Source of the DNA: an uncultured Ruminococcus sp.
GTDB lineage: Bacteria > Bacillota > Clostridia > Oscillospirales > Acutalibacteraceae
DNA: 64,000 nucleotides
Direction of reading: 5' to 3'
NCBI GenBank assembly: GCA_902763835.1
Contig: CACWTQ010000022.1
Coordinates: 10,133 to 74,132, forward strand
Shown: one piece after another, positions 11,308 through 60,248 of the stretch
Numbering within the stretch: position 1 is the stretch's first letter
Layout: each line of letters begins with the position of its first letter
Notes under the pieces: model-generated
The model's database searches: none
Told to the model about the DNA's origin: nothing
What the model saw: the letters and a program-made list of their open reading frames with translations, nothing else
Position numbers and translations under genes: made by a program

Positions 11308-11464
11308 CGGACAACGGCGGACAACGTCCGCAGGAAATACATAAATTATTGGTCGGGTACATGAAGTAAGATTAACAAGAACTATCTTCACGTGTTTTCT
11401 GCGGACATTGTCCGCTCGGTCGGGTGCGTGAATTCTCGTCAAAAAAAGACTATCTTCACGTATT
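11308..11464. repeat. mosaic intergenic repeat locus (modules A,A / C,B / A,C,B; B and C inverted relative to other loci)
   Basis: CGGACAACG+GCGGACAACGTCCGC (11308-11331), TTGGTCGGGTA (11349-11359), AACTATCTTCACGTGT (11380-11395), GCGGACATTGTCCGC (11401-11415), TCGGTCGGGTG (11416-11426), GACTATCTTCACGTATT (11448-11464). Confidence 0.85.
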
Positions 11465-11497
11465 AAAAAAGCACTTGCAAAATTAATTGCAAGTGCT
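11465..11497 (-). terminator. intrinsic terminator after the tRNA pair
   Basis: The minus strand reads GCACTTGCAATTAATTTTGCAAGTGC followed by TTTTTT. Confidence 0.75.
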
Positions 11498-11500
11498 TTC

Positions 11501-11587
11501 TGGTGCCGGTGGCCGGACTCGAACCGGCACGGTATCGCTACCGGTGGATTTTGAGTCCACTACGTCTGCCAATTCCATCACACCGGC
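11501..11587 (-). tRNA. tRNA-Leu (anticodon CAA), type II with long variable arm, CCA encoded
   Basis: The reverse complement is GCCGGTG...GTGGA-CTCAAAA-TCCAC...GGTTCGAGTCC...CACCGGCACCA. Acceptor, anticodon and T arms all pair. Length 87 nt. Confidence 0.92.
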
Positions 11588-11591
11588 AAAA

Positions 11592-11684
11592 TGGCGGAGA
11601 GATGGGGATTCGAACCCCAGATACGGCGGAAACCGTATACATGATTTCCAATCATGCTCCTTCGGCCAGCTCGGACATCTCTCC
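11592..11684 (-). tRNA. tRNA-Ser (anticodon GGA), type II, CCA encoded
   Basis: The reverse complement is GGAGAGA...CATGA-TTGGAAA-TCATG...GGTTCGAATCC...TCTCTCCGCCA. Length 93 nt. Confidence 0.92.
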
Positions 11685-11730
11685 ATTGCTTAACGGTACT
11701 TTAATATTATAGTACGTTAAGCTGTATTTG

Positions 11731-13052: not shown

Positions 13053-13177
13053 GGAACTGTTGGGAAATAAGTTGAACAATTTATACGCAGGATAATTTGT
13101 TCTGTGTTAGGCACAACACCGCAGGAATACTGACGTATTTCAAGGTGTAAATGTTCAAGTTATTTTCTGACAGTTCC
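13053..13177 (-). mobile_element. MITE-like TIR element M2 (125 bp, internal deletion)
   Basis: It starts with GGAACTGTTGGGAAATAAGTTGAACAATTTA and ends with ...TTATTTTCTGACAGTTCC. Flanked by TAA/TAA (13050-13052, 13178-13180). Confidence 0.88.
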
Positions 13178-13188
13178 TAAATCAAATT

Positions 13189-13255
13189 TCGGTCGGGTTC
13201 GTGATTTAAAACTAAAAATTACTGTCTTCACGTTTTTCCGGTGAGCATTGCCCGC
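13189..13255. repeat. mosaic repeat locus (C, B, degenerate A; inverted)
   Basis: TCGGTCGGGTT (13189-13199), ACTGTCTTCACGT (13221-13233), GTGAGCATTGCCCGC (13241-13255). It abuts the stop codon of the downstream-facing gene. Confidence 0.7.
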
Positions 13256-13917
13256 TATCTAAACAGTTCCCAATTTTCGGTATAAAGTTCTTTTCTGGTA
13301 ATATCCGTAAAAATTTCAAATCCGCAATTCTTTTCAAGAACGTCCGTAAGCAATGACGGATTGACATTTTTAACGCTGCCTGCCGGAAGAACTATGCTTA
13401 GTTCAACACCATTTTGAGTACATTTGAGAGTATATCTGACAATATTTTCTTTCAAGTTAACCTGTTTAACAGTTCCCTTTTTGGTAGTTTTTTCAACCAA
13501 AATCTTTTCACTGTTCAGAAGAGTATTTGCATAGTCAAAAATCTCGTCATTAGTATGTTCCTCGGAGGTAATGATAATTTCAAATTCGGCATAGCATATA
13601 GCCGCAGGCTCCATAACGGGTTCGGTTACTTCGTAAGCCGTAAGACCTTCGGGCGAATAACTATTGAACCGTGAAATTATTTCATCATACGGATAATTTT
13701 CCTCAATAAGCCGAATATCAACCGATTCATAAGTACCTCTGAACCCAAGTGACAACGGCAAAGCAAACGACACATACAATCTTGAATTAAACCCCTCAGT
13801 ATGCCACAGCGGAATTTCCGACATCTGCAATGCACGTGTGATAGTTCTGTTTATATCGAGATGTGAAATAAATCTGCAAGCACCGTCTTTTCTATACCAT
13901 ACTCTTACGTTTTTCAA
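13255..13917 (-). CDS. TIGR03936-type radical SAM-associated protein (DUF2344)
   Basis: Start set to TTG 13917 (GAAGAGGTG upstream), giving MKNVRVWYRKDGACRFISHLD, the usual N-terminus of this family. It overlaps the upstream partner gene by 26 nt. Confidence 0.75.
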   Translation of the reverse strand: MKNVRVWYRKDGACRFISHLDINRTITRALQMSEIPLWHTEGFNSRLYVSFALPLSLGFRGTYESVDIRLIEENYPYDEIISRFNSYSPEGLTAYEVTEPVMEPAAICYAEFEIIITSEEHTNDEIFDYANTLLNSEKILVEKTTKKGTVKQVNLKENIVRYTLKCTQNGVELSIVLPAGSVKNVNPSLLTDVLEKNCGFEIFTDITRKELYTENWELFR

Positions 13918-19229: not shown

Positions 19230-20126
19230 TTAAAACAACAAATTAATTGCCATATTAAGAAGTCCCATTATCAAACCAATAACCGCACCGAGATTTACAA
19301 TCGTATCAAGCTCTTTCTTCATAACTTGCAGCACAAGATTTTCAAGCTCGTCCATATCCATAGCGTTAATTTTATCTTCAATCATTTTCGAGATATCAAT
19401 TTTAGCGAAAAGCTCGTCCAAAGCTTTTTCAACAGACTTATTGTAAAGTTTTGTAATGCTGCTTTGAATCTTCTCATCGGTGATATCAACATTCTTAAGA
19501 AGTTCGCTCACCGATTTAACCTCGATATCGTCGATTTTCCTGTTGACCTCTCTGCCGACTAACGCTTTACCGTTTTTATCGATATATTTCTGAACTTCGT
19601 CGCCAATCATTCGGGTAATGGAGGCGATAAAATCATCATTAATGAACATCTTAAGCATAGGGTTCTGGATTTTTTCCTTGACAACCTTTTCGCATTCATC
19701 GGAAATCACTTTGCCTATATTGATATTATTCACGGAAACTAAAATTTGTTCGGTAACAGTATCGGAAATTTTTATTTTAATCGCAGCATAACCCTCATCG
19801 TCAAGCTTGCCGACCGTCATAACCTCGGACCTTATCTCCGCATTCAGAATCTCGGATATCTTCCCGATAACGGCTGCCTGAGTATTCTCGTTCAAGAGCT
19901 TCGATTTAATATCGTCCTTGGTTATGAGTGTATTTCCGACAACATTTCCTATAGCTTTCGCCAATCTTGGTTTACCTTTCGGGATAGCACCCGGGGTAAA
20001 CGGAATAGTACGTCCGAAAATCTTTACCTCGTTCCTAGGTCTGAAAAGCATTTTCACGGCAATATAATTAGTTCCGTAGCCTATCACAGTACCCATTACA
20101 GGAGTAATAATATATTTCAAAAACAT
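19230..20126 (-). CDS. DUF445 family membrane protein
   Basis: The N-terminal GYGTNYIAVKMLFRP and a C-terminal TM are typical of DUF445. Confidence 0.7.
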   Translation of the reverse strand: MFLKYIITPVMGTVIGYGTNYIAVKMLFRPRNEVKIFGRTIPFTPGAIPKGKPRLAKAIGNVVGNTLITKDDIKSKLLNENTQAAVIGKISEILNAEIRSEVMTVGKLDDEGYAAIKIKISDTVTEQILVSVNNINIGKVISDECEKVVKEKIQNPMLKMFINDDFIASITRMIGDEVQKYIDKNGKALVGREVNRKIDDIEVKSVSELLKNVDITDEKIQSSITKLYNKSVEKALDELFAKIDISKMIEDKINAMDMDELENLVLQVMKKELDTIVNLGAVIGLIMGLLNMAINLLF

Positions 20127-20150
20127 TTCTTCACCATTCCAAACTCTAAT

Positions 20151-21281
20151 TTAATAATCTGCATACAAAAGATATTCGGAATTACCGCTGATAAATCCGT
20201 ACATACCTTTGTTCGGAGAATATACGTACCAATATGTACCGCTTGCATCGATAACATACACATATTCGCCATAGTAAAGCTCCCCTATAATGGAATCGGG
20301 GTCGCTGCTTTCGTCCGACCTCAAAGCAAGGTAACCTATATCCACATCGACAGTATAAGTCGTATAGCCCGAAGTTGGCGGATCTCCCAAACCTGTATAA
20401 ACAGAGGGTTCTTTCTTGCTTTCGACTTTGCTTTCAGCCTTACTCTCAACCTTGCTTTCCGCCTTGCTCTCAACCTTGCTTTCCGCCTTGCTCTCAACCT
20501 TGCTTTCAACCTTGCTCTCAACCTTGCTTTCAGCCTTGCTCTCTGTTTTGCTTGAAGTAACCTTTGAGCTTGAAGTGGTCTTCTTCTCGATTTTCTGCTC
20601 TGAAAGAATTCCCGAATTAATATAACCCATTTCTTCGGATTTATTAACCGCTCTCCAAACACCGCTTGACATTTTTGCAAGAATTGTTACCATATCATTC
20701 TTTGAAAGAGTGGCAAGCACAGCAGAACCTGCTTGGTCTGTGTAAAAATTGGCATTATCGACAGCTACATAATATACCTGACCGTAAGTTATTTCATCAT
20801 AAAGGTCAACAAGATTAGCCGTCTTAATATACCCGAAATTCCCCAGTGTTTCGCTGTAAATAAAAGACATACTGCTTCCCTCGGCATCATTTTTATCGGC
20901 AACAATACTCTTTATAACCGAAACACTCTCTCCGTAATTCAGCACACCGATAACAGTTCCGCTGCCTTTGGCATCTTCAACAACCTGAACGGTGCTTGCT
21001 CCCGTAACAAACATTGTATTGTACGAAGACGTGTCAAACGACAGCTGACTTGCTTCGGGTTCTTCGGTATCTGTTTGTGTGTCTGTATCCGAAACGTCAA
21101 TATCGGTATCGGTGTCAGTATCTGTATTCTCTTCAGAAACGGTACTTTCGTAAAAAGTGGTTGAGCTGATGTCACTTTGTGAATTTTTCGACACAATTTC
21201 ATTGACATCAATTTTACAGCCGCCGAGAATTCCAATAACCGTAAGTGCGGATAAAATTAACAAATACGCTTTCTTCACCAT
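20151..21281 (-). CDS. lipoprotein with SH3b-like domains and (K/A)ESKVES low-complexity repeat
   Basis: Lipobox ILGGC. Three SH3-like segments end in GYIKTANL, GYINSGIL and GFISGNSEYL. There is a central repeat tract. Confidence 0.65.
   Translation of the reverse strand: MVKKAYLLILSALTVIGILGGCKIDVNEIVSKNSQSDISSTTFYESTVSEENTDTDTDTDIDVSDTDTQTDTEEPEASQLSFDTSSYNTMFVTGASTVQVVEDAKGSGTVIGVLNYGESVSVIKSIVADKNDAEGSSMSFIYSETLGNFGYIKTANLVDLYDEITYGQVYYVAVDNANFYTDQAGSAVLATLSKNDMVTILAKMSSGVWRAVNKSEEMGYINSGILSEQKIEKKTTSSSKVTSSKTESKAESKVESKVESKVESKAESKVESKAESKVESKAESKVESKKEPSVYTGLGDPPTSGYTTYTVDVDIGYLALRSDESSDPDSIIGELYYGEYVYVIDASGTYWYVYSPNKGMYGFISGNSEYLLYADY
20413..20550 (-). repeat. in-frame 12/24-bp tandem coding repeat
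   Basis: CTTGCT(T/C)TC(A/C/G)(A/G)CC units encode SKAESKVESKVESK... Confidence 0.8.
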
Positions 21282-24738: not shown

Positions 24739-25689
24739 TTATTGATTTTGCTCGTTTATAGTATCATATTTTGTTTTATCAAGGCTGACCTTTTGCTCAT
24801 CGGCATAAAAAGTCGGAGCAGGGTTGTAATCCTGCACGTTCGGAACAGCCCCCGAACTTGGAATGAATGTTGAATCATTCGGGTTTGTATTAACCGCCTG
24901 AGGAATGATTTGCGGATTGTAATTATTCTGATTATACATATTCGGCATTTGATTATACTGATTTTGTACACCGAAGCCGTTGTTAGGCTGACCAAAATTC
25001 GGCTGACCGACATTCTGCTGCGGAAAATAGTTTCCTCCGACGGGGGCAGTCGATTTCTTATCTTTCGCAATTAAAACCAAAAGAATAATCAATATTGCAA
25101 GAGAAATCACCGACACCAACGCACCTGTGATAAACTCATCCTGAAAAGAATCGACAGAACGAGTACAGTCATAAGTATATGAAACAAGATTATAATTTGA
25201 TATATCCTCACCCTGCAAGCTCATCTTATTTTTCCACGAATCAAATTCATCTACAAGACCCAAATCATTCTCAATCAAAATGCCGTCTGTTTCCACACCG
25301 TTTTGAAGAATCAAATCGTTATCCCCTAAAATATACGCATCGCAAAGTGCCGAAATGTCGTTGTTAAACTGTGTGTCTGCGGGAGCTTGCAAAATCATAT
25401 ACAAATCTTGTTCCTCGTCAAATTCGATAAGGTAATAGAAAGCTTCGTCCTCGCCCGAATCGGGATTGTATTTCACCGCAATGCAATCGTAAACTGTATA
25501 AACAGTCCCCTGAACGGGAAGCTTATTTTCAAGCTGTTCTTCGGAAACAACGTTGTAATCCGCTATTCCGCCGTTCATCTCGTTAAAAAACACGCTCGCA
25601 CTGTCAACAACCAAATACAAACTTACCAACAAAGCTACTGCCGAAATACACGATAATGCAATTTTCAGTATTTTCATCAGTATTTTCAT
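24739..25689 (-). CDS. two-TM membrane protein with Q/N/P-rich C-terminal tail (paralog)
   Basis: 316 aa with the same architecture (FYYLIEF, TYDCTRSVDSF). Confidence 0.65.
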   Translation of the reverse strand: MKILMKILKIALSCISAVALLVSLYLVVDSASVFFNEMNGGIADYNVVSEEQLENKLPVQGTVYTVYDCIAVKYNPDSGEDEAFYYLIEFDEEQDLYMILQAPADTQFNNDISALCDAYILGDNDLILQNGVETDGILIENDLGLVDEFDSWKNKMSLQGEDISNYNLVSYTYDCTRSVDSFQDEFITGALVSVISLAILIILLVLIAKDKKSTAPVGGNYFPQQNVGQPNFGQPNNGFGVQNQYNQMPNMYNQNNYNPQIIPQAVNTNPNDSTFIPSSGAVPNVQDYNPAPTFYADEQKVSLDKTKYDTINEQNQ

Positions 25690-25963
25690 CGGGATAGCAT
25701 CACCTTTCTTAAATAAATTTTAATATATATTATTTTAAATTTATTATACAGAAATTATCAAATTACGCAAAAAATAAGAAGTCTTAAAGAACATTCTACA
25801 CTAGTTTAAGTATAACATAACGTAAAATTTTCGTCAACTGTACACTTCTCCAATTTTCTTTGAATTTTGCGAAAAAATTAAATCATAGTGTTTACGCAGC
25901 GAAAAATAATAAAATCCAATTATGAATTGTTTTTAAAATCTATCCTAATGTGTAAAAAAAAGG

Positions 25964-25992
25964 TTGACTTTTTGCTTAAAATTGGATATTAT
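25964..25992 (+). promoter_or_regulatory. sigma-A-type promoter
   Basis: TTGACT, a 17-nt spacer, then TATTAT. It lies upstream of the small ORF at 26037. Confidence 0.55.
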
Positions 25993-26036
25993 ATAAATAT
26001 GTACAAGTAATTTATTTCTTGGAGGTGTTTTGTTTT

Positions 26037-26192
26037 ATGAAAGATAATAAGAATGCACTTGGCATCATTATCGGGGTAGTAACATTCGCAGCCGCTGTTG
26101 CCGCTGCCGTTACGGCTTTCTTCCTCGTAAACGAAAAGAAGAAGAGAGATGAAGAGGAACTTGAACGTTACCTCGATTGTTCTATCCAGTAA
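26037..26192 (+). CDS. small (51 aa) single-TM protein, not in the supplied ORF track
   Basis: GGAGGTG lies 8 nt before the ATG. The product is MKDNKNALGIIIGVVTFAAAVAAAVTAFFLVNEKKKRDEEELERYLDCSIQ. A promoter lies upstream and a hairpin downstream. Confidence 0.6.
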   Translation: MKDNKNALGIIIGVVTFAAAVAAAVTAFFLVNEKKKRDEEELERYLDCSIQ

Positions 26193-26201
26193 TCCATAGG
26201 G

Positions 26202-26246
26202 AAATTTAAAGAACAGCTTATCTTCGGCACAATGTCGGGATAAGCT
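26202..26246 (+). terminator. intrinsic terminator
   Basis: AACAGCTTATC...GATAAGCTGTT followed by TGTTTG. Confidence 0.5.
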
Positions 26247-26302
26247 GTTTGTTTGCGGTAATAATTATACCTTTGTATATGTAGAAATGTATAGGTGATT
26301 AT

Positions 26303-26884
26303 ATGAATAATATTATAGAAAAGATATATGAATTTGACCATTCTGTTCTGCTTTATATTCAGGAGAATATGCGGACATACTATTTAACGCCTTTGATGAA
26401 AATATCATCATTATTTGTGAATATCGGTATTTTATGGATACTGTTAAGCATAACCCTTATATGTATAAAACGAACACGAATGATAGGCATTATGACATTG
26501 ACATCTCTTGCATTCTGTATTTGCATAAACAATATATTCGTAAAACATATTGTCGCACGAGCAAGACCTTTCGATACATACAGCGACCTTTTTCCACTTA
26601 TAAAAAAACCTACCGACTATTCATTCGCTTCGGGTCATACAACAGCATCGTTTGCGGCGGCAGGTATTCTTGTAAGATTTTTACAGCGACCTCTTGCAGT
26701 GCTTATTGTGTTTTTTTCGGTGCTTGTGGCATTTTCAAGACTTTACCTCGGTGTGCATTATCCAACGGACGTTTTGTGCGGAATGGCGATAGGTATTCTC
26801 GGAAGTACTTTTGTTTATATGATGTTTAAAAAGAAATATAATCTTGATGAAATTAGACTTTCAAAAAGAGCTGATAGGGATTGA
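26303..26884 (+). CDS. PAP2-family phosphatase (undecaprenyl-diphosphatase-like)
   Basis: KxxxxxxRP (ARARP), SFASGHT and SRLYLGVHYPTDV motifs. Confidence 0.85.
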   Translation: MNNIIEKIYEFDHSVLLYIQENMRTYYLTPLMKISSLFVNIGILWILLSITLICIKRTRMIGIMTLTSLAFCICINNIFVKHIVARARPFDTYSDLFPLIKKPTDYSFASGHTTASFAAAGILVRFLQRPLAVLIVFFSVLVAFSRLYLGVHYPTDVLCGMAIGILGSTFVYMMFKKKYNLDEIRLSKRADRD

Positions 26885-26941
26885 TTTTTTGAAATTTTTG
26901 ATATATAATATAAATATAGAAATGCAAAGGAGGCTATTATT

Positions 26942-27118
26942 ATGGCAACAAGTACAACAACGTATTCGTTAATTGACATAGCTCAACAAGAAGATAAAGA
27001 AAGAGCAAAAGCCGCACTTTGGTTTCTCAGGAAAATTGAAAAAGGCAGAAAATCAGGCGAAGAAGAGGGTTGGCTTTCGGAGGAGGAAATAAAAGAATAC
27101 TTCAAAAACATTGTATAA
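26942..27118 (+). CDS. small (58 aa) hypothetical protein, not in the supplied ORF track
   Basis: AAAGGAGG lies 8 nt before the ATG. The product is MATSTTTYSLIDIAQQEDKERAKAALWFLRKIEKGRKSGEEEGWLSEEEIKEYFKNIV. Confidence 0.55.
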   Translation: MATSTTTYSLIDIAQQEDKERAKAALWFLRKIEKGRKSGEEEGWLSEEEIKEYFKNIV

Positions 27119-27159
27119 TATATAATACAGTTTATTAACAACCAATACACAAGATACTT

Positions 27160-27558
27160 ATGAAAAATAAAAAGAATAATCTAATAATAAAGCCAATACA
27201 TAATCCATATCAATGTAAAGAGAATAATTCTATAGGAATAATCTATAGCAAATACATTAATGATAAAAACAGATTAATGATTAAAGATAACAGAACATTT
27301 TATAAAGTACTGCAAAGCTTTTTATTTCAAATCAAAACAACCGATATTCTAGCATTGGTTGATAAAAAAATGAATTTGCATATAAACGATATCTTAATAG
27401 ATGAAAACAATAATACTTATAAAGTAAAAGCATTTGAAATGATTAATTTTAACTGCACTGATTTTCCCGAATGGTACACTAAAATTACTCCTGTACTGTT
27501 ATCGGGAAATCCGAATACTATGGGTGAATTTTTAGCTTTATACAAAACCCAATACTAA
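27160..27558 (+). CDS. hypothetical protein in a visibly AT-richer gene
   Basis: 132-aa ORF with no recognisable motif. It is much more A/T-rich than its neighbours. Confidence 0.5.
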   Translation: MKNKKNNLIIKPIHNPYQCKENNSIGIIYSKYINDKNRLMIKDNRTFYKVLQSFLFQIKTTDILALVDKKMNLHINDILIDENNNTYKVKAFEMINFNCTDFPEWYTKITPVLLSGNPNTMGEFLALYKTQY

Positions 27559-27575
27559 CCTATTCACACAAAAAC

Positions 27576-27612
27576 AGCGGACAGACAAAACGTCTATCCG
27601 CTTTATTTATTA
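27576..27612 (+). terminator. intrinsic terminator, probably bidirectional
   Basis: AGCGGACAGAC-AAAA-CGTCTATCCGCT followed by TTATTTATT. Confidence 0.6.
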
Positions 27613-27613
27613 T

Positions 27614-28534
27614 TTATTCCTCTTCGTCATTGTCATTATCGACAATAATTTTATACGCATTATGCACAACTTCAACAGTAACCTCGGTATGTTCGCCGCC
27701 GTCTTCGCCGTCTGTTGTCCATTTAATAGGCTCGTTTGATTTAAACTTAACCTTTTTGGTAGTAAACTTAACTAAGCTCGGACAATCAAAATTCTGTGTA
27801 ACAAGTGACGTCAGAATATTTTGCAGCTCGGCAGGATTTGACGGATATTTTATCAACGCACATTCAAAAAATCCGTCATTCAAAAGCGGTGCATATTCGG
27901 AACGATTTTTAAGTCCGCCTATTGACGTAGTATTTGACACAAGTCCGAGAATAAAATCATCTTCAATTTCAATCTCTTCACTCTCAACTTTTAAATGATA
28001 GTACGAATATTTATTCAGGCTAAGTCTTTTCACCGCCTCGATAAGATACGCAACATGACCCAGTTGATTCTTCATCTTTTGCGGAGTTTCATACGAAACA
28101 TCGGTAAAAATTCCGAATGCCGAAATATACAAATAAGGTTTGCCGTTGAGTGTTCCGCAGTCGCAGTTAATGGGAGTTCCGTTCACAATCTCCCGTGCCG
28201 CTGCCGGTATCTCGAACGGTATGCCCAGACTATAGCCGAAATCATTGGTCGAGCCGCCGGGAATGTACCCCAATGTTACACGCTTCTCTAACGGCAGTGA
28301 AACAAGCCCTTGAACAGCTTCGCTTAAAGTGCCGTCACCTCCGCATACAACCACGGTGTCAAACTCTTCCGAGCGTTCCGTAATGACATCGTGTGCGTCA
28401 TATCTTTTCTGAGTTGGGTAAACTGTTACGTCATATCCCCCTTTTACAAAAATATCTATAACATTCCAGAGTTCGGCTTTTATCTGAGATTTTCCCGAAG
28501 ACGGATTGAACATAAGCAAAAGTTTTTTAGGCAT
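27614..28534 (-). CDS. diacylglycerol/lipid kinase (DagK/YegS family)
   Basis: FNPSSGK, VVCGGDGTLSEAV and GYIPGGSTNDFG motifs. Confidence 0.85.
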   Translation of the reverse strand: MPKKLLLMFNPSSGKSQIKAELWNVIDIFVKGGYDVTVYPTQKRYDAHDVITERSEEFDTVVVCGGDGTLSEAVQGLVSLPLEKRVTLGYIPGGSTNDFGYSLGIPFEIPAAAREIVNGTPINCDCGTLNGKPYLYISAFGIFTDVSYETPQKMKNQLGHVAYLIEAVKRLSLNKYSYYHLKVESEEIEIEDDFILGLVSNTTSIGGLKNRSEYAPLLNDGFFECALIKYPSNPAELQNILTSLVTQNFDCPSLVKFTTKKVKFKSNEPIKWTTDGEDGGEHTEVTVEVVHNAYKIIVDNDNDEEE

Positions 28535-28678
28535 AATGTCACCTCGTTAATATTTTTACTTTATCATTATATTGTATTTTTGAAAAAATATCAATCGTTG
28601 ATTTTTGAATAATTTGTAAATTGATATTCCCTCCGCCTTATCATAACAAATAAAGCCGAGGGATATTTTTATTTTTAA

Positions 28679-29260
28679 TCACAAATCAATTGAAACATAG
28701 GTTTTAAGAATTTGACGTGCAACCTCTATCTTAGATATCCTCATATCCATAGCCTGTTTTTCGATATACTTATGAGCTCTGTCCTCGCTTAAAGATAAAT
28801 ATTGCATAAGTAAAAACTTTGCTCTGTTAATTATTTTAGTTTCTTCAATAGTTGATTTCAGCCGTTCATTCTCCTTTGAAAGTCCTGCGTAACGCTTCTG
28901 AGCAGCCCTTACAACTCCGAGCGACTGCTTGAAAAGCATTTTGTTGATAGGCTTAGGAACAACCACCACACCGTAGTCAATAACGTTCTTACCCACAAAG
29001 CCTGCTTTATCCGACTGAACAAGCAATATAACCCCACAGACGGTTTCACGGCTTATTTCAACCGAGAGGTCTACTCCGTTGCTGTCTTCTATGGGTGCAT
29101 TTATAACCACAATGTCATAAACGGTATCATTAGCGTATTCCAAAGCAATTTTAGTATCGCTGACAACGTTTTCGACTTCATACGAATTTTCTTCCAGCAA
29201 GTCTTTCAAAACATTAACTGCCGTTGACAGCTTCGACACGAGCAATGCCTTATTTTTCAT
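28679..29260 (-). CDS. ANTAR-domain regulator with receiver-like N-terminal domain
   Basis: The C-terminal RAKFLLMQYLSLSEDRAHKYIEKQAMDMRISKIEVARQIL is an ANTAR domain. The receiver-like domain has N (VVINAP) where the phospho-Asp is expected. Confidence 0.8.
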   Translation of the reverse strand: MKNKALLVSKLSTAVNVLKDLLEENSYEVENVVSDTKIALEYANDTVYDIVVINAPIEDSNGVDLSVEISRETVCGVILLVQSDKAGFVGKNVIDYGVVVVPKPINKMLFKQSLGVVRAAQKRYAGLSKENERLKSTIEETKIINRAKFLLMQYLSLSEDRAHKYIEKQAMDMRISKIEVARQILKTYVSIDL

Positions 29261-29303
29261 AATTGAGCCACCACCTGTAAAAACAACCTTTATACATTAT
29301 ATA

Positions 29304-30425
29304 TCAATAGTTGCCCAAAAATGAGAACTCGGGAAGTTCTTCCGAAAGAGCACAAAGCATTCTGTAATTGTCCTCATTGTGAACATTGCCAATAAAATCA
29401 AGATAAAACAAATATTCAAACGGAACATTCGGGATAGGTCTTGACTCAATCTTTGTGAGGTCAAAACCGTGGGTTGCGAACCTGCAAAGCACGTTGTAAA
29501 GCGAACCGGGGTGATTCGACAGCGTGAAGCAAAGAGAGATTTTATCGGCTTTATCCGAAACGATAGCCTTTTTCGAGATAACTATAAAGCGTGTGCAGTT
29601 GTTGTCGTTATTCTGAATATTCTTATCGAGAACCTTAAGACCGTACTCATCGGCAGCCGCTTTGGTGCAGATAGCCGCCCAGTTTATACGTTTCTCCTCG
29701 GCAACTGTTTTTGCGGCGAGGGAAGTACTTCCGCATTTTTTTGTGGTGTAGCCGTTCTCGCTGATGAAAATGGAACACTGTGCCAAACCCTGTTCGTGTG
29801 AAAGAATATTTTCTATATTGGAAATATCGGTTTGCGGAATAGCACAAAGACAATGTTCAATCGGCAGGTCGATTTCACCGACAATATAGTATCTGTACTT
29901 CAGAATAAGGTCGTAAACTCTCGACACCGAACCTGCCGAGCTGTTCTCAACGGGAAGAACACCAAAGCTGCATTTATCGCTTGCAACGGCTTCAAACACC
30001 TTATCGAAATTCTTTTCAAGGCTGTAATTTGCATTCGGGAAAAATTCCATAGCCGCCAAGTGAGAATTTGACCCCGCACCGCCAAGACAGGCTACATTCC
30101 ATTTATCGGACTGCGTATCAAATTCACTGTCGGAATTAAGGATTACTTCTTTCAAATCATTGTTGCCGTTAATTATGGTGTGCTGCAAATCTCTTGAAAG
30201 TTCCATAATACTGCCGTAAAGCAATCTTGCGTACTTTCCGTACTCTCCGCCGAGCTTCTCCGCCCTGTCCAGAACGACCGCTTCTCTTTTAAGGTTAAGA
30301 ATAGGCGTACCCGATTCACGTTTGCTTTCGGCTACTTTCAGCGAACAATCCATTCTTTTTTTAAACAGTTCGATAATCTGCCTGTCCAAGCTGTCTATCT
30401 CTAATCTAATATCATTCAATTCCAT
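29304..30425 (-). CDS. pheA: bifunctional chorismate mutase / prephenate dehydratase
   Basis: N-terminal CM helix (LNDIRLEIDSLDRQIIELFKKRM), a PDT domain, and an ACT domain with TKIESRP. Confidence 0.88.
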   Translation of the reverse strand: MELNDIRLEIDSLDRQIIELFKKRMDCSLKVAESKRESGTPILNLKREAVVLDRAEKLGGEYGKYARLLYGSIMELSRDLQHTIINGNNDLKEVILNSDSEFDTQSDKWNVACLGGAGSNSHLAAMEFFPNANYSLEKNFDKVFEAVASDKCSFGVLPVENSSAGSVSRVYDLILKYRYYIVGEIDLPIEHCLCAIPQTDISNIENILSHEQGLAQCSIFISENGYTTKKCGSTSLAAKTVAEEKRINWAAICTKAAADEYGLKVLDKNIQNNDNNCTRFIVISKKAIVSDKADKISLCFTLSNHPGSLYNVLCRFATHGFDLTKIESRPIPNVPFEYLFYLDFIGNVHNEDNYRMLCALSEELPEFSFLGNY

Positions 30426-30446
30426 TGTTATTTAACCTCACATATT

Positions 30447-31520
30447 TTAAAGCATATTAATAACAGCTATCGCCGCCGCCGCTTCAATTACGGATACCGC
30501 ACGTGTTACAATACAAGGGTCGTGTCTGCCCTTTACGGAAAGAGTTGTATTCTCTTTACTCTGCAAATCTATAGTATTCTGTTTCATAGATATTGAAGCC
30601 GTAGGTTTAATTGCGGCTCTAAAAAGAATAGGCATACCGCTTGTAATACCGCCCAAAGCACCGCCGTGGTTATTCGTTCTTGTGCGGACGTTTCCGTTTT
30701 CGTCATAATAAAATTCATCGTTATTTTTTGAACCCGTGGAACGTGAACCCTCAAAGCCCGAACCGAACTCAATACCCTTAACGGCAGGCACACCGAAAAC
30801 AACGCTTGAAATCACATTTTCAACACCGCCGAACATAGGCTCGCCAACACCTGCGGGCATACCCTGAACTATACATTCTACAACTCCCCCGATACTGTCG
30901 CCCTTTGCTCTTACTGCGTCAACTTCGGCTCTAAGTTCGTTTTCCTTTTCGGGATTCACCAAAGCGAACTTTTCGCCATTAAGTCTGTCAATAAGCTCCT
31001 GTGAAACACCCGTAGGCTCAAACGGGTCGTCATATGTATTGCCGATTGAATAAATATGTGCGGCAATTTCAATACCTTTTCTTTTAAGTATTTGACGGAT
31101 AACAGCACCTGCAAACACAAGATTTGCGGTAAGTCTGCCCGAAAAATGACCGCCGCCACGAACATCGTTAAATCCGTCATACCTAAGATAAGCGGTATAA
31201 TCGGAATGTCCCGGACGAGGAGCATTCATAATGTTGCCGTAATCGCCGGAACGTGTATTTGTATTGTAAATGACAGCCGCAAGCGGAGCACCTGTAGTCA
31301 CTCCGTTGAGAACACCCGACAGAATTTCGGGTTTATCGGCTTCTTTTCGGGGAGTAGCGGTTTTATCGTTGCCCGGTGCTCTCCTTGCCATTTGTCTGTA
31401 AACCTCGTCCATATCTATTTTTTCGCCGCTCGGCAAGCCGTCGATAACTACACCTATTGCCGTTCCGTGGCTTTCACCGAAAACCGATATTTTTACTTTA
31501 TCTCCAAAATAAGAACCCAT
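30447..31520 (-). CDS. aroC: chorismate synthase
   Basis: FGESHG, RPGHSD and GRHDPC motifs. Confidence 0.93.
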   Translation of the reverse strand: MGSYFGDKVKISVFGESHGTAIGVVIDGLPSGEKIDMDEVYRQMARRAPGNDKTATPRKEADKPEILSGVLNGVTTGAPLAAVIYNTNTRSGDYGNIMNAPRPGHSDYTAYLRYDGFNDVRGGGHFSGRLTANLVFAGAVIRQILKRKGIEIAAHIYSIGNTYDDPFEPTGVSQELIDRLNGEKFALVNPEKENELRAEVDAVRAKGDSIGGVVECIVQGMPAGVGEPMFGGVENVISSVVFGVPAVKGIEFGSGFEGSRSTGSKNNDEFYYDENGNVRTRTNNHGGALGGITSGMPILFRAAIKPTASISMKQNTIDLQSKENTTLSVKGRHDPCIVTRAVSVIEAAAAIAVINML

Positions 31521-39721: not shown

Positions 39722-39724
39722 TAA

Positions 39725-39878: not shown

Positions 39879-39885
39879 TAATTTT

Positions 39886-39998: not shown

Positions 39999-40147
39999 GG
40001 AACTGTCATAAAATAACTTGAACATTTATACTTGTCGAATTTGCCCTGTGTGTTGTGCCTAAGAGCCTGTTTAAAATCTTAGCGATACACGTCTTTTTGG
40101 CAAATTTTCCTGAGTCTAAATTGTTCAACTTATTTCCCAACAGTTCC
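39999..40147 (+). mobile_element. MITE-like TIR element M5 (149 bp, variant core)
   Basis: Both TIRs are present with TAA/TAA flanks (39996-39998, 40148-40150). About 45 nt of the core are replaced by unrelated sequence. It ends 6 nt before the proS GGAGG. Confidence 0.88.
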
Positions 40148-40166
40148 TAAATATGGAGGTACAAAA

Positions 40167-45721: not shown

Positions 45722-46195
45722 TTATAAATGTACAGTAAGGAAATTAGCAAGCAAATCAACCGCTGCAACACAGAGATACACTACTACAATAAAACCGACA
45801 ATTGACAAAATTTTAACAATTCTGCGTTTAGTCGGCGACATCTCTTTCCACTCAGGTTCGTCGGGGAGGTCAAGCTTTTCGTAATACTCGGGGATTTCCA
45901 TAGCCGAAACACTACTGAGAGCGTCAATACCCTTTTTAAAAAAGCTGATTGGAACATAATAGACATAGCTGCCGTCCGCAACGCCCATAACAGGCGAAAT
46001 TTTTGAAACAACCTGCTCCGAATACGGGATTTTTGCTTTGACAAGAGTTTGCTCGACTATACCTTTATTTACCTCGTTTACGATGATTAATTTTACAGGC
46101 TGGTTTAAATCTATTTTACTTGAAAACTTTTTTCCGCAGTCGCATTTTTTGTTTTCAGAAAATTCTATTTTTTTACATTTTGAACAATATTGCAT
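45722..46195 (-). CDS. hypothetical protein with N-terminal CxxC..CxC zinc ribbon and C-terminal TM
   Basis: 157-aa ORF: MQYCSKCKK...CDCGKKF, and a C-terminal hydrophobic helix. Confidence 0.55.
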   Translation of the reverse strand: MQYCSKCKKIEFSENKKCDCGKKFSSKIDLNQPVKLIIVNEVNKGIVEQTLVKAKIPYSEQVVSKISPVMGVADGSYVYYVPISFFKKGIDALSSVSAMEIPEYYEKLDLPDEPEWKEMSPTKRRIVKILSIVGFIVVVYLCVAAVDLLANFLTVHL

Positions 46196-46256: not shown

Positions 46257-46337
46257 CCGGGCAACGCCCGGCGGGCAACGCCCGCTGGAAATACGTGAAG
46301 ACAGTTACTAAAAACATTAACTTATGAACCCGACCGA
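46257..46337 (+). repeat. mosaic repeat locus: two variant A hairpins, B, C
   Basis: CCGGGCAACGCCCGG (46257-46271) overlaps GCGGGCAACGCCCGC (46271-46285). Then ATACGTGAAGACAGTT (46291-46306) and ACCCGACCGA (46328-46337). Confidence 0.85.
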
Positions 46338-53792: not shown

Positions 53793-53804
53793 TTTTTTTT
53801 ATTT

Positions 53805-53897
53805 GACACGTGAAGATAGTTATATATTAACATAACTTTGCGTACCCGACCGAAAGTTGTTTTTATTGAGGAGTTTTAGGTTTCTCCTTTTATAGTT
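53805..53897 (+). repeat. mosaic repeat locus: B, C, D
   Basis: GACACGTGAAGATAGTT (53805-53821), ACCCGACCGA (53844-53853), and TTGAGGAGTTTTAGGTTTCTCCTTTTATAGTT (53866-53897) with a GGAG/CTCC stem. Confidence 0.85.
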
Positions 53898-54018: not shown

Positions 54019-54108
54019 TATCACAATTAGGAACTGTTGGGAAATAAGTTGAACAATTTAGACAAGTATAGATGTTCAAGTTATTTTCTGACAGTTCCTT
54101 ACGCATTA
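54019..54108. repeat. module E copy split by MITE M7
   Basis: Left flank CTATCACAATTA plus right flank (TTA)CGCATTACAAA reconstructs CTATCACAATTACGCATTA, identical to 37534-37552. Confidence 0.8.
54030..54098 (-). mobile_element. MITE-like TIR element M7 (69 bp, TIR-only deletion derivative)
   Basis: GGAACTGTTGGGAAATAAGTTGAACAATTTAGACAAGTATAGATGTTCAAGTTATTTTCTGACAGTTCC with TTA/TTA flanks (54027-29, 54099-101). Confidence 0.88.
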
Positions 54109-54162: not shown

Positions 54163-54177
54163 CACAATTACGCATTA
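54163..54177. repeat. module E copy
   Basis: CACAATTACGCATTA. Confidence 0.7.
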
Positions 54178-56040: not shown

Positions 56041-56062
56041 ATGTATTTGTTAAAACAAATTG

Positions 56063-57238: not shown

Positions 57239-57723
57239 TATAAAATACATTCCCTTTCGTCCTTATCGGAGCTTAAATTCTGCATATCAACCATATTCGA
57301 CTTATACTTTGTGAGAATAAAGTGCGTGCTGGCGGAAAGCACCGAATCAAGCGGCGACAATCTTTTTGCAACAAACATTGCTATCTCCTGAATGGAATGA
57401 CCCTTAACAAAAACTGCAAGGTCGTAATTTCCTGCCATAAGGTAAACACCCTCAACCTCGTCAAAAGCCATAACACGCTCGGCGATATCGTCGAAGCCTT
57501 TGTCACGCTTTGGGGCAACCTTAAGCTCGATAAGGGCACGAACCTCCGAACCGGGAACTTTCTCCCAGTTAATGAGAGCCTTGTAACCGCAGATAACGCC
57601 GGAGTTCTCAAACTCCGTAATCTGCTTTCTTACCTCTTCCGGGGTAATATTGAGCATTGACGCAAGTTCATTATCGGTGAACTTGCAGTTGTCTTGTAAC
57701 AATTCAAGTAAACGGTTTTTCAT
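57238..57723 (-). CDS. Lrp/AsnC-family transcriptional regulator
   Basis: An N-terminal HTH (LELLQDNCKFTDNELASMLNITPEEVRKQI) and a C-terminal RAM domain. Confidence 0.85.
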   Translation of the reverse strand: MKNRLLELLQDNCKFTDNELASMLNITPEEVRKQITEFENSGVICGYKALINWEKVPGSEVRALIELKVAPKRDKGFDDIAERVMAFDEVEGVYLMAGNYDLAVFVKGHSIQEIAMFVAKRLSPLDSVLSASTHFILTKYKSNMVDMQNLSSDKDERECIL

Positions 57724-57756
57724 AATATTCTCTCCTTTTATATTACATATGACTAC

Positions 57757-59229
57757 CTATTTTGCAGATTCTTTCGGATTACTTTTCTTTTTAAACAAAC
57801 TCAGTGATGAAAAAGCATAAAGTTTAAAATTTTCTCCCTCATACCTTTCCATAAAAACTGTTGCGTAACCCAAAATAAGCCAGAAAAAAGTTGTCATAAT
57901 TGTGATATCGTAAATCAAAGTTTTCTCAAAAAAAGCGTACACGCAATAAGCGGCAATAAACGATGCAAGGCACGGGAAAATGTCGCTTCTGATAGTCGGC
58001 TTTACGGTGAAAATGGTTTTTACCATTCTCCAGCCTAGGCATATCGTAAATCCCATAAAGAAGAAGAAACCAATAAAACCGGAACAGACTATAATTGTAA
58101 GATAGCCGTTGTGGAGGTCGCTGTACTTCATCTTATTGTTGTTGTAGCGGTTGCCGTAAATAGTGATGTTTCCCTTGCCCACTCCCAAAATCGGGTGGTT
58201 CTTGATAACGTTCACACCCTGTTTGAACAGCTTTATTCTGCCGCTGTCTATATTTTTATTTTGATGTTCAAACGTAGTAATTTGGTTCAAAGCGTCGTCG
58301 CTGTCTTCAAAGGTATTGGCTGTGTCTTCGGGCGAACTCATTGTATAAGTTGTTCCGGTCTGAGTAACATATCTCAAACTGAAGCTGAGTGCTGTCACTG
58401 CCACAAAAATAAGGATAAGAGCAAGTGCTTTCTTGAACAGCAATTTGAAATTAATCTCCTTACCGCCAAAAAGACGATAACATATATACCCAATTGTATA
58501 ACAGACAATAATAAGAATTGCCGCATTTGAATCCGTAAGGAAAATAACAAACAAATTAACCGCTGCCGAAATCATAATAACTGCACGGCGAGATTTTGTG
58601 AGTGGTTTTCCTGTAACATTTTTGCAAAAGTCGCCCTGCCACAGTATATGACAGCCGAACGCAGAACAGAAAGAGGTAAAAGCCATAAGATTAGGGTTAA
58701 AGTAAACACCTGTAAATCTATTCTCGTATACAACAAGATAACCGAAAATATAAGTAATACTTTTACCTATTGTGTAAAGTGTGATAAGACTTATAATATT
58801 AAGCACAAGTGACAGCCAAAGCAAAATATTACAGAGTATATATATTTCCTTATAGATTTTTTTTCTGCCGTCCTCGGTATGAGCTTCCGTATGAAGACCG
58901 TAGAACATAAAAAATATCAACGGTAAAAATATCACGTAGCCGACACTTTCCCAGATTCCCGAGCTATACCCTCTCACGAAAACAGTGACAATATTTGTTG
59001 CTATAAACAGCAGCAGCCACCCATAGTAATTGACTTTTTTTATATTATTTTTGTATACATATCTTTTAACAAAAAGGGTTAAACCCCAAATAAATATGAA
59101 CACTGCACAGACAATTGCAGGTACACTGATGTAACCGATTTGACACAATATCAAATCAATAACAAACGCAATTCTAAATACCGAAGTATTGTTACGAAGA
59201 GCATCTAACCGTGTGTTATAATGCTCCAC
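57757..59229 (-). CDS. O-antigen ligase/polymerase-like (Wzy_C) polytopic membrane protein
   Basis: 490 aa with about 12 TMs and a large loop carrying HNGYL, typical of the O-antigen ligase family. Confidence 0.6.
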   Translation of the reverse strand: MEHYNTRLDALRNNTSVFRIAFVIDLILCQIGYISVPAIVCAVFIFIWGLTLFVKRYVYKNNIKKVNYYGWLLLFIATNIVTVFVRGYSSGIWESVGYVIFLPLIFFMFYGLHTEAHTEDGRKKIYKEIYILCNILLWLSLVLNIISLITLYTIGKSITYIFGYLVVYENRFTGVYFNPNLMAFTSFCSAFGCHILWQGDFCKNVTGKPLTKSRRAVIMISAAVNLFVIFLTDSNAAILIIVCYTIGYICYRLFGGKEINFKLLFKKALALILIFVAVTALSFSLRYVTQTGTTYTMSSPEDTANTFEDSDDALNQITTFEHQNKNIDSGRIKLFKQGVNVIKNHPILGVGKGNITIYGNRYNNNKMKYSDLHNGYLTIIVCSGFIGFFFFMGFTICLGWRMVKTIFTVKPTIRSDIFPCLASFIAAYCVYAFFEKTLIYDITIMTTFFWLILGYATVFMERYEGENFKLYAFSSLSLFKKKSNPKESAK

Positions 59230-59294
59230 TCTATCACCGCCTTTCGTTCATAATACCGTCAATTTAATGACAATATTATATTCAAAGCATATGG

Positions 59295-59981
59295 TTACGT
59301 GCCGATTTTAATCACCGTTAAAATCATAACGTAAAAATCATAAAAGAAGTTAAACTTTTCTATATAATTAAGATTGAATTTCATTTTTTGCGGAAGGATA
59401 TCTTCGATATACGCCTTTTCCACATCATCGGCTTTTTCGAGAATTTCCTCTTCATTGCGGAACTGTATGCTTGTCATAGATGTTATACCTGCCGGCATAA
59501 GCAAGGTTGCATACATTTCGGTGGTATATTTTTCAACATATCTTTCGACTTCGGGTCGAGTGCCGACGAACGACATATCCCCCGAGAGGACGTTGAAAAG
59601 CTGAGGCATTTCGTCAAGTCTGAACTTGCGAAGAACGTGACCGACCTTAGTAATACGGCTGTCCGTGCCGGCGGTGACCTGAGAATTTTTGCTGTTATCG
59701 TTCACAAACATAGTACGGAACTTAAAAATTTTAAATATCTTGCCTCCCGAAGTAACACGTCTTTGTCTGAAAAAAACAGGACCTTTCGAGTCGGCTTTTA
59801 CCAAAACCGCAACCACCGCCATAGGAATTGCCAGAATGATTAAAAGACTCACGGCGAAAATTATATCAAAAAATCTTTTAAAGAATAAATCAATTTTTTT
59901 CTTGGAAAGGATTTCATAATATTTTTTCACGTCATCATTTTGCATTTCGGGTGGAAGAGATGAAAATTTAGGCAATAGCAT
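59295..59981 (-). CDS. undecaprenyl-phosphate sugar phosphotransferase (bacterial sugar transferase family)
   Basis: ATG at 59981, 12 nt after AAAGG. Motifs: DEMPQLFNVLSGDMSFVGTRP. Confidence 0.85.
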   Translation of the reverse strand: MLLPKFSSLPPEMQNDDVKKYYEILSKKKIDLFFKRFFDIIFAVSLLIILAIPMAVVAVLVKADSKGPVFFRQRRVTSGGKIFKIFKFRTMFVNDNSKNSQVTAGTDSRITKVGHVLRKFRLDEMPQLFNVLSGDMSFVGTRPEVERYVEKYTTEMYATLLMPAGITSMTSIQFRNEEEILEKADDVEKAYIEDILPQKMKFNLNYIEKFNFFYDFYVMILTVIKIGT

Positions 59982-60000
59982 TTTTATCACAAACCTTTTG

Positions 60001-60248
60001 CGGACAACGTCCGTTTTTTTAATACGTGAAGACAGTCCTTTTTTAATACGTGAAGACAGTCCGTTTTTTTAATACGTGAAGACAGTCCGTTTAAAATCTG
60101 GCTTTACGAACCCGACCGATAGTTGATTTTTGGCGAGAGTTTTAGGTTACTCTTTACATAGTTTATTTTTTGGCGAGAGTTTCAGGTTACTCTTTACATA
60201 GTTTATTTTTGGGCGAGAGTTTCAGGTTACTCTTTACATAGTTTATTA
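60001..60248 (+). repeat. mosaic repeat locus: A, B x3 (24-26-bp units), C, D x3 (40-bp units)
   Basis: GCGGACAACGTCCG (60001-14); AATACGTGAAGACAGTCC at 60022, 60046 and 60072; ACCCGACCGA (60111-20); TGGCGAGAGTTT(T/C)AGGTTACTCTTTACATAGTTTATTTTT at 60131, 60171 and 60211. Confidence 0.9.

Follow-up and report, generated by a model that had tools for sequence, protein, structure and literature searches.

REP and BIME sequences are built on a basic unit of 20-40 nt, a GC-rich, imperfect palindrome flanked by a conserved tetranucleotide, and the enterobacterial REP/BIME sequences and REPINs are moved by RAYT. The BOX elements of Streptococcus pneumoniae and S. suis have the arrangement boxA-boxB(n)-boxC, and boxB arrays differ in length between strains (PMC3049150). 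In the window analysed here, the whole stretch of 64,000 nucleotides, a sequence-only reading had proposed a comparable five-module family with the grammar A-B(n)-C-D(n) and a further module E, and our analysis partly supported that reading. The flagged motifs are pieces of one previously undescribed, non-coding inverted-repeat element of ~200 nt with two unlike termini: the T-end always consists of a T-run and AAY, and the opposite, A-type end of nGGAnAY and the 15-nt GC palindrome called hairpin A. The loci, together with the tandem arrays and the copies of motif E, are as follows (SD, Shine-Dalgarno sequence).

11308-11345, forward strand: A-type terminus with the half-hairpin CGGACAACG, hairpin A (11317-11331), AGGAAAT and only a decayed prefix of B; read on the reverse strand, AAAAAAGGAG and the start of the left-hand gene follow.
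11349-11415, reverse strand: A-type arm with hairpin A (11401-11415, AAT-loop variant), AGAAAAC, B (11381-11393) and C (11349-11358, one mismatch).
11416-11470, reverse strand: T-type arm with B (11449-11461) and C (11416-11425), beginning at the T-run of the terminator hairpin after two tRNA genes.
13189-13257, reverse strand: A-type arm with B (13221-13233), C (13189-13198) and a degenerate hairpin A (13240-13255) whose sequence overlaps the upstream gene's stop codon.
32788-32960, forward strand: T-type end fused to the aroA SD; two terminal partial units of 31 bp come first, one full arm next (B 32859-32871, C 32894-32903), and last a D-equivalent segment containing TTGACA-17-TAAAAT at 32927-32955.
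32789-32881: tandem array, 31 bp x 3.
33959-34273, forward strand: array of 5.8 units of 54 bp with the order T-run, AAC, B, N22, C, joined to the SD of the gene for prephenate dehydrogenase.
34343-34402, reverse strand: hairpin A (34346-34360) and further 10-bp half-hairpin units (CGGACAACGG).
34351-34402: tandem array, 10 bp x 5.2 (TRF).
34404-34418, forward strand: motif E, outside the element.
37404-37470, forward strand: hairpin A, AGGAAAC and a decayed arm with B and C eroded and AACTTCACGC retained.
37538-37552: motif E.
38867-38888, forward strand: solo hairpin A (G.T variant GTTCGC) with AGGAAAA and no arm after it.
39886-39925, forward strand: degenerate A-like palindrome, T-run and two C-like GCCGACC blocks, weakly assigned to the family.
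46257-46337, forward strand: A-type arm with a compensated hairpin (GCGGGC/GCCCGC), one extra half-unit, B (46293-46305) and C (46328-46337).
53798-53897, forward strand: T-type arm directly 3' of the stop codon of the MIP-channel gene, then one D unit (GGAG/CTCC stem).
54019-54107: motif E, interrupted by a TA-flanked MITE.
54163-54177: motif E.
60000-60248, forward strand, upstream of a Bac_transf gene: hairpin A (G.T at its base) and a T-run, then two terminal partial units of ~25 bp, one full arm (B 60074-60086, C 60110-60119) and D x 3.2 (40 bp).
60009-60092: tandem array, ~25 bp x 3.3.
60119-60247: tandem array, 40 bp x 3.2.

The described motifs were present at every locus that had been listed, and A, B, C and D occurred far above chance in the window. 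The core of B, ACGTGAAGAYAGT, had 17 matches with at most one mismatch against 0.11 expected, and the C motif, ACCCGACCGA, had 15 against 1.7 expected, 12 of them within the loci listed earlier; the C matches at 31314, 36559 and 39408 were coding or chance. Hairpin A gave eight matches over both strands against 0.06 expected, representing seven sites, as 11401-11415 was counted on both strands. A profile search with the B-C arm recovered the same 17 arms in the window and a decayed 18th at 37434-37462.

The five-module grammar was not upheld. B and C, which it treated as separate modules, are two conserved blocks of one ~46-nt arm, with C lying 22-23 nt after B throughout, and two such arms, inverted, flank D and a centre to form a ~196-nt MITE-like element. 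Its 196-nt consensus runs from the T-run through AAY, an arm (B, 22-23 variable nt, C), D, the centre and the inverted arm to the A-end, which comprises the complement of nGGAnAY, hairpin A and optional 10-nt half-hairpin repeats. All 14 full copies carried one T-type and one A-type terminus, with inverted B ends 157-218 bp apart (157-171 bp in 12 of them). The ~40-bp unit proposed as module D does exist, as a local form of a generic segment at consensus positions ~58-98, and of the six B+C repeats claimed at 33959 the sixth contains B and lacks an intact C. Motif E, by contrast, does not belong to the family: its 24 copies in the sequence examined have their own 5' context, AAnTTCCGnCnnT, just one of them contacts an A array, and E is unrelated to the A-D element. 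The structural traits of MITEs were found, namely small size, AT-richness, absence of coding capacity, terminal inverted repeats and a fold with extensive base pairing. Because the length of the B-C spacer varies by 1 nt among copies, they preserve no reading frame. A full copy folds into one long hairpin (-69.8 kcal/mol, z -9.1). Half-units were not significantly structured compared with shuffles on either strand (mean z about -1).

The proposed dispersed, modular and intergenic character of the family was borne out, as were its variable module copy number, both orientations and decayed copies; 193 of 197 B cores are intergenic. Beyond the window, at least 180 copies were found at at least 65 loci from two rumen Ruminococcus MAGs, and the profile scan gave at least 132 and at least 51 arms in the listed loci of these two MAGs, compared with 17 in the window. 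The window is 96-97% identical to the MAG RUG14662, which places the element in a rumen Ruminococcus lineage.

The element is like BOX in being a modular composite intergenic repeat with a strain-variable number of a tandem module, a stem-loop predicted if it is transcribed and no clear mobilising enzyme, and like BOX of S. suis in having alternative terminal modules around common inner modules (PMC3049150). Judged by its description, BOX shows no evident sequence relation to the element, and the host here is a Ruminococcus, not a Streptococcus. Unlike in BOX, B and C make up a single arm, of which there are two inverted copies, the tandemly repeated unit usually includes a terminus (leader and B prefix, or leader, B and C) or is D, and is not an internal module as in BOX, and the termini differ (T-run versus GC hairpin), one of them being fused to a downstream SD; an internal B repeated between terminal A and C was not found. 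With REP/BIME sequences the element shares a short GC-rich covarying hairpin, a hairpin-linker mosaic, variable tandem clusters, an extragenic location at gene ends and the absence of target duplications, but hairpin A is merely a terminal appendage of a ~200-nt AT-rich element with 46-nt arms, the GTAG-type tetranucleotide is absent, and the loci examined contained no RAYT gene. The likeness to BOX and BIME suggested earlier holds for behaviour, with array length changing between strains as in boxB. Correia elements (CREE) of Neisseria and other MITEs are likewise non-coding and AT-rich, measure ~150-200 bp and have terminal inverted repeats that give a long hairpin; they lie near genes, are co-transcribed and are candidate RNase III substrates (PMC3049150, PMC10969869). 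Correia elements have symmetric ends and a TA duplication, whereas this element has asymmetric ends and no detectable duplication, commonly occurs as one-ended partial units or arrays, and abuts the SD as a rule. The BrickBuilt MITE of Porphyromonas gingivalis also carries a variable-copy tandem array, which in the part of the source available is an internal minisatellite, unlike the arrays of terminal units or D seen here (PMC4596501). The TAACTGA repeats of Beggiatoaceae, as far as the available part of their description goes, are direct repeats, abundant between genes, for which a post-transcriptional regulatory role has been proposed, but they are heptamers without an inverted-repeat element and belong to another phylum (PMC4679880). 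In the literature we found no description matching the element, and the proposed absence of a match to a described family holds for the families searchable here (Rfam and literature).

Comparisons between strains showed that array length is polymorphic. Upstream of aroA, whose 418-aa protein is identical, the array consists of one unit, one full unit plus two of 31 bp, or four of 54 bp. In the spacer upstream of 45722-46195, an 83-nt unit is present in L070-L073 and missing from the window, the number of hairpin half-units is one or two depending on the strain, and a ~170-nt duplication has a CCGCCG junction. The units of 60009-60092 are bordered by AAACGGAC direct repeats. Presence or absence at orthologous sites was seen in three comparisons, none with a perfectly clean empty site. 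In RUG14662 (L047) an element lies between aroA and aroC, whereas these genes overlap in the window. This case, the one between close relatives, falls short of a clean insertion, as aroA is recoded over its last 14 codons. In L022 the gap between stop codon and SD is filled by an element, and the orthologues in L024 are ~10 nt apart.

No target-site duplication was detected, with the termini being inexact and a duplication of 1-3 nt inside the T-run able to escape; the flanks of the 14 full copies shared no direct repeat, and the high 12-mer scores between gene-side flank and upstream DNA came almost all from array-internal repeats. The associated RAYT or transposase that the sequence-only reading had suggested looking for was not recognised: in 530 kb of loci, judged without a Pfam scan, no candidate transposase, RAYT or reverse transcriptase stood out among 487 ORFs screened for multiple copies, among ORFs flanked by A hairpins or among ORFs between inverted ends. 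No plasmid or phage copies of the element were found. On balance, we favour the reading that all the loci derive, as copies or as fragments, from one composite inverted-repeat element that is probably selfish, trans-mobilised and locally remodelled. Most likely it is selfish DNA mobilised in trans now or recently, by a route that would leave no target duplication and would depend on the conserved arms and the terminal hairpin. As copies lie at gene boundaries with their ends against SD or stop codons, the element would be transcribed within 5' leaders and intercistronic spacers. Resident copies would be reshaped locally, through tandem duplications and deletions at short direct repeats and at the borders of modules, which would make the arrays hypervariable between strains.

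The placement of the element bears on an alternative reading. The leader side pointed to a gene start in 117 cases and to a stop in 49, distances peaked 15-30 nt from the ATG, and the A-end often lies directly after a stop codon or before an SD. In 48 genes the T-end has the form ...TCTTCACGT-RTT-A(4-9)-GGAGG-N(5-12)-ATG, and an A-run of at least 4 immediately precedes the SD in 21 of the 27 element-bearing genes, compared with 21 of the 198 genes that lack the element. Such SD abutment, seen in about half of the solitary T-ends, is far tighter than in known MITEs and needs targeting or selection. The loci could hold a host-maintained expression module, with B'-RTT-A-run on the SD a functional 5'-leader element serving as translation enhancer, RNase processing or stability site, or insulator between cistrons; its origin may be mobile DNA, with selection now retaining this segment while distal parts erode. 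The invariant SD junction and the A-run that goes along with the element fit this explanation, as do truncations that hit the distal side and retain the SD-proximal end, and stop-to-SD gaps filled by elements inside apparent operons. The long hairpin of the terminal inverted repeats is a candidate RNase III-type substrate, and the sequence of B and C, nearly invariant around a freely varying spacer (a conservation inflated by the collection of loci through exact B-C matches), could equally well reflect a host-level function. We nevertheless consider it unlikely, as the genes beside the copies are unrelated core genes with no common function, about half of the solitary T-ends lie away from an SD, after terminators or elsewhere, half-units lack significant structure on either strand, no convincing sigma-70 promoter toward the downstream gene was found in element copies, and orthologues in close relatives manage without the element. 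The tight fusion of the T-end to the downstream SD had been overlooked in the sequence-only reading.

Hairpin A bears on another explanation, that the element is REP/BIME- or PATE-like and moves in single-stranded form. The enzyme would be encoded elsewhere and be either an HUH (Y1) protein like those of RAYT or IS200/IS605 or a rolling-circle one resembling that of IS91, with hairpin A and nGGAnAY as recognition and guide site. The hairpin is the terminus of a larger AT-rich element, has nGGAnAY as its conserved 3' flank, lies at a fixed 7 nt from B, and covaries in its stem: 95.8% of cells were paired, compensatory changes occurred in three of six pairs, and neither the covariation score nor the percentage paired was reached in any of 500 shuffles. 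One-sided changes were all G.T wobbles on one strand; in B*, a wobble bias is confounded by T-richness. At least one other repeat is headed by the identical hairpin and linker, units restart at a fixed terminus, and the lack of target duplications points the same way. T-ends are oriented 93 to 22 relative to GC skew, a bias confounded with gene orientation. We regard this explanation as quite unlikely, given that the 530 kb contain no Y1 or RAYT-like ORF next to A hairpins or enclosed by them, that long terminal inverted repeats are present here and absent from IS200/IS605 and REP, and that the conserved GTAG-type tetranucleotide is missing.

The partial units recall retro-type one-ended copying, in which reverse transcription of an RNA that ends in ...CACGUGUUAAAAAA would start at a nick beside an SD or T-run, predicting copies that share an A-rich 3' end, are truncated on the 5' side and restart head to tail. 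The gene-proximal end is indeed always an A-run of variable length (4-9 nt), shared by nested partial units of 13, ~18, 25, 31 and 54 bp, and T-ends also follow the T-runs of terminators. However, longer copies end at discrete module borders (model positions ~58, ~95 or full length) and not randomly, and restarts occur at the A-type end too, so both strands would have to be templates. At least some array junctions have short direct repeats typical of slippage, flanking duplications are absent, and no reverse-transcriptase candidate was recognised among the ORFs of the loci. Apart from the A-run end, the features of non-LTR-like retroposons (random 5' truncation, variable flanking duplications, a reverse transcriptase) were not seen in the loci, and this route is highly improbable.

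In the window, the Rfam gathering score was reached by two tRNAs only, and at E-values up to 1 two element regions gave only sub-threshold plant miRNA-precursor matches, attributable to the long hairpin of the element. Small RNA genes or riboswitch-like cis-regulatory motifs, which the covariation in hairpin A and TTGACA-17-TAAAAT inside one window copy might suggest, deserve almost no weight given the lack of an Rfam match, hairpin A' without a consistent terminator tail, half-units no more structured than shuffles, repeat-like copy number, truncations and arrays, and unrelated neighbouring genes.

The best reading remains a new mosaic repeat family, BOX/BIME/MITE-like and putatively mobile or recently mobile. 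That the element is more than a passive MITE is quite doubtful. It could be a new type of mobile DNA, copied inward from its terminus by nick- or RNA-primed synthesis aimed at the 5' edge of the A-run/SD region of core genes, or a leader module, now domesticated, that controls translation or mRNA processing in more than 100 unrelated core genes, in which case the strain-variable arrays would act as expression tuners. Fixed-terminus partial units and SD abutment are not explained by a cut-and-paste MITE model, which makes the mobilising machinery worth finding. If the 17 arms in the 64 kb of the window are representative, genomes of this lineage would carry a few hundred arms each, located in core-gene leaders, for instance those of aminoacyl-tRNA synthetase genes, recA, and pur and aro genes. 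The element would then make a major contribution, so far unannotated, to strain-level variation and to contig breaks in assemblies of rumen MAGs, and would be usable as a strain-typing marker and offer a natural test of whether intergenic repeats on the ribosome-binding site alter expression.

Matches to the B core ACGTGAAGAYAGT (at most one mismatch) numbered 17 in the window against 0.11 expected, matches to C (ACCCGACCGA) 15 against 1.7, and matches to the hairpin GCGGACAACGTCCGC 8 on both strands, representing 7 sites, against 0.06. These three motifs of the sequence-only reading far exceeded chance expectation in the window, which has a low GC content of ~0.39 and most of its genes on the minus strand, and the descriptions in that reading were borne out at every locus it had listed when the sequence was read. 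An arm profile found the same 17 arms plus one decayed arm behind a solo hairpin at 37404. B and C had been taken as separate modules; they are one unit, as C lies 22-23 nt after B in every window case. TRF reported the following arrays.

Tandem arrays reported by TRF in the window
32789-32881, tandem array
33959-34273, tandem array
34351-34402, tandem array
60009-60092, tandem array
60119-60247, tandem array

The B-C arms were found to pair in inverted orientation, giving 14 full copies with B ends 157-218 bp apart (157-171 bp in 12 of them); in every one of these the two termini differed, one being T-type (a T-run followed by AAY) and the other A-type (hairpin A followed by nGGAnAY). The 196-nt consensus is TGTTTTTTTAAC ACGTGAAGATAGT-(22)-ACCCGACCGA TAGTTAATTTAATGCGGTAGTTTTTGACCAACTTTATTTAG TGCAATAACAATCATACCAAATACTT TCGGTCGGGT-(23)-ACTATCTTCACGT ATTTCCT GCGGACGTTGTCCGC CGT, and one full copy was predicted to fold into a single long hairpin (-69.8 kcal/mol, z -9.1). 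Module D of the earlier reading corresponds to consensus positions ~58-98, and its stems are compensated (AGAGT/ACTCT and GGAG/CTCC in window copies vs AGTT/AACT in the consensus). Copies that begin at the T-end either were full-length or ended just past C (~58) or D (~95); these discrete classes show that the element is really modular, as had been proposed, and random 5' truncation of longer copies was rejected on the same ground. Partial units restarted from the terminus, covering 13, ~18, 25, 31 or 54 bp from the T-end, and those of the A-end, which consist of the hairpin plus a prefix, did so as well. RNA structure of half-units did not differ from that of shuffles on either strand and showed no strand asymmetry, and a wobble bias in B* (97 vs 16) was discounted, since T makes up 49% of the strand. 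In a subfamily of T-type arms (e.g. at L017, L022, L029 and L033, among the numbered loci collected from relatives), the variable spacer contains TTATCCATA or TTATCCGTA, one mismatch off a DnaA box, which is probably a coincidence.

Hairpin A was located exactly 7 nt from B. In an alignment of 40 distinct copies, 95.8% of cells were paired and compensatory changes were observed in three of the six pairs, with the variants GCGGAC/GTCCGC, GCGGGC/GCCCGC, GTCGGC/GCCGAC and GCAGAC/GTCTGC; neither this degree of pairing nor the covariation score was reached in any of 500 shuffles. One-sided changes were all G.U wobbles on the AAC-loop strand. Half-hairpin units of 10 nt (CGGACAACGG) accumulated on the outer side of hairpin A. 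A second repeat headed by hairpin A and a linker, A-AGGAGAG-GGTCGAAGGTG..., joins the same centre as the element. Hairpin A with AGGAGAG heads the unit GGTCGAAGGTGCGACATCTC, present at L055 (6480-6700 and 900-1010) and also at L025, L030, L035 and L051. This unit, an alternative arm of the element family, shows the same restart-type repetition and is joined to the same central segment.

A genome scan with the pattern B-N(20-25)-C, using one genome per species, returned at least 65 loci, and the matches listed were all in RUG14662 and RUG11832, both uncultured Ruminococcus sp. from the rumen, a host range to be read as a lower bound. In the collected sequence, 165 of 197 B cores had C at the fixed distance; as loci were picked by exact B-C match, the conservation of B and C is inflated. 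Profile search of these loci gave 132 and 51 arms in the two MAGs, and arrays are under-represented because MAG contigs often end within element repeats. Over 25369-32415, identity between the window and RUG14662 contig CADCHW010000008 was 96-97%, which places the two in the same or in sister species. Searches of PLSDB plasmids, INPHARED phages and IMG/VR viral contigs found no element copy. Rfam, which the sequence-only reading had proposed as a check, gave only two tRNAs in the window, and the element matched no known RNA family; literature searches on the motif strings and on Ruminococcus repeats found nothing relevant to the element.

Based on simple ORF calls, 193 of the 197 B cores were intergenic. 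Their leader side pointed to the start of a gene in 117 cases and to a stop in 49, and the distances peaked sharply at 15-30 nt from the ATG; 48 genes shared, in gene orientation, the arrangement TCTTCACGT-RTT-A(4-9)-GGAGG-N(5-12)-ATG. An A-run of at least 4 directly 5' of the Shine-Dalgarno (SD) sequence was present in 21/27 genes with the element vs 21/198 without it. Among ~100 solitary T-ends, about half adjoined a reverse-complement SD, ~10 were preceded by a terminator, a GC hairpin or hairpin A in its RUG11832 form, and the remainder had no common flank. Some A-ends adjoined an A-run and SD, others directly followed stop codons. T-ends showed a replication-strand bias that is inseparable from gene orientation.

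The main rival to the mobile-element interpretation is that the SD-proximal segment may have a function for the host. A shared regulon is unlikely, since the adjoining core genes are functionally unrelated (among them GluRS, AlaRS, ThrRS, RecA, PurC, PurF, DivIVA, PrmA, Mrp-type ATPase, AroA, AroC, prephenate dehydrogenase and ammonium transporter). A promoter was also rejected: a consensus scan of a full copy found no sigma-70 site, the single good match in a window copy was directed away from the adjacent gene, and CGTGTTAAAAA as an 'extended -10' does not hold for the AAT variants and would have transcription begin within the SD.

Comparisons between strains showed that copies vary in number and length. 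In contigs whose aroA encodes an identical 418-aa protein, the array upstream of this gene consisted of one unit in L068, of one full unit with two terminal units of 31 bp in the window and of four units of 54 bp in L067; variants of the units were also found in the array 1.1 kb distant. Upstream of 45722-46195, strains differed by an 83-nt unit starting with the T-leader, by one vs two hairpin half-units and by a ~170-nt tandem duplication with its junction in CCGCCG microhomology. At 60009-60092, direct repeats of AAACGGAC flank the 25-bp units, a slippage signature. The MIP-channel locus (53798-53897) and the 60000 locus showed no polymorphism and were identical across all strains found. 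In one presence/absence case, an element separates the aroA stop from the aroC SD in RUG14662, and in the window the two genes overlap (TAATG); this is not a clean insertion, because recoding affects the final 14 codons of aroA. These codons have ~60% DNA identity (window 31520-31600 vs L047 7100-7190) in genomes otherwise 96-97% identical, and the aroC leader of L047 retains a near-copy of the window aroA 3' end (GGGTGTGAATAGATAATG). In the other, at L022, a full element occupies the gap between a stop codon and the next SD, and the RUG11832 orthologues are ~10 nt apart.

Other repeats were also observed. Motif E (CACAATTACGCATTA), which had been counted as a module of the family, is a separate recurrent motif, nearly always preceded by AAnTTCCGnCnnT and often located right after a stop codon or ahead of a promoter; some copies have extra ACGCATT heptads (L015 7517, L051 2088).

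Copies of motif E
34404-34418, window
37538-37552, window
54163-54177, window
54019-54107, window
L010-L065, 21 more copies

A different MITE-like family, GGAACTGTTGGGAAATAAGTTGAAC...GTTCAAGTTATTTTCTGACAGTTCC, occurs at window 13150-13185, 39720-39880, 40000-40150, 54028-54100 and 60440-60520; one copy sits inside motif E with TA on either side, which suggests an IS630/mariner-type origin. A third repeat of ~250 nt (..CAAAATCTAAAAGATTTAGCATTTTAAAGTTTGGTCAAGC..; L047 880-1150, also L010, L055, L058 and L062) is present in RUG14662 and missing at the orthologous window site 26263. A ~520-nt insert that separates two conserved genes in RUG14662 (L047 5343-5866), and that contains a terminator and a small ORF on the minus strand, is likewise missing from the window (30445). 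By eye, the product of gene 38993-39721 resembles a replication-organiser or winged-helix protein; within the coding sequence, a 24-bp tandem repeat (AAGCCGACCGATAA...) at 39383-39440 is a chance mimic of module C. Another 24-bp repeat (x5.4) at 20415-20543 lies within overlapping ORF calls.

ORF calls over the 20415-20543 repeat
19746-20555, plus strand
20151-21281, minus strand
20336-20680, minus strand

A non-autonomous mobile element fits the TIRs, small size, AT-richness and non-coding nature, the dispersal over three or more genomes to more than 180 sites that are unrelated, and the cases of presence/absence. The analogy with BOX/BIME mosaics (PMC3049150) drawn by the earlier reading held for modular truncations and strain-variable arrays; B and C as separate modules and E as a module were not borne out. 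A retro-type origin is less likely, since truncation is modular, restarts occur at both ends and some array junctions carry slippage repeats. No target duplications were found around element copies; in 530 kb of sequence no transposase-like, HUH-like or multi-copy ORF was recognised, and a linked enzyme was not found, as no ORF lay between inverted ends and no HUH-like ORF beside hairpin A. As a mobile element, the family departs from a standard MITE by its unlike termini, by partial units that all restart at a terminus and by the fusion of the T-end to the SD. Together with the absence of duplication and the structure-conserved terminal hairpin, these features point to a hairpin-dependent route without target duplication, by which the element would be mobilised; candidate mobilisers are a HUH/RAYT-like enzyme, a rolling-circle enzyme or a site-specific recombinase.
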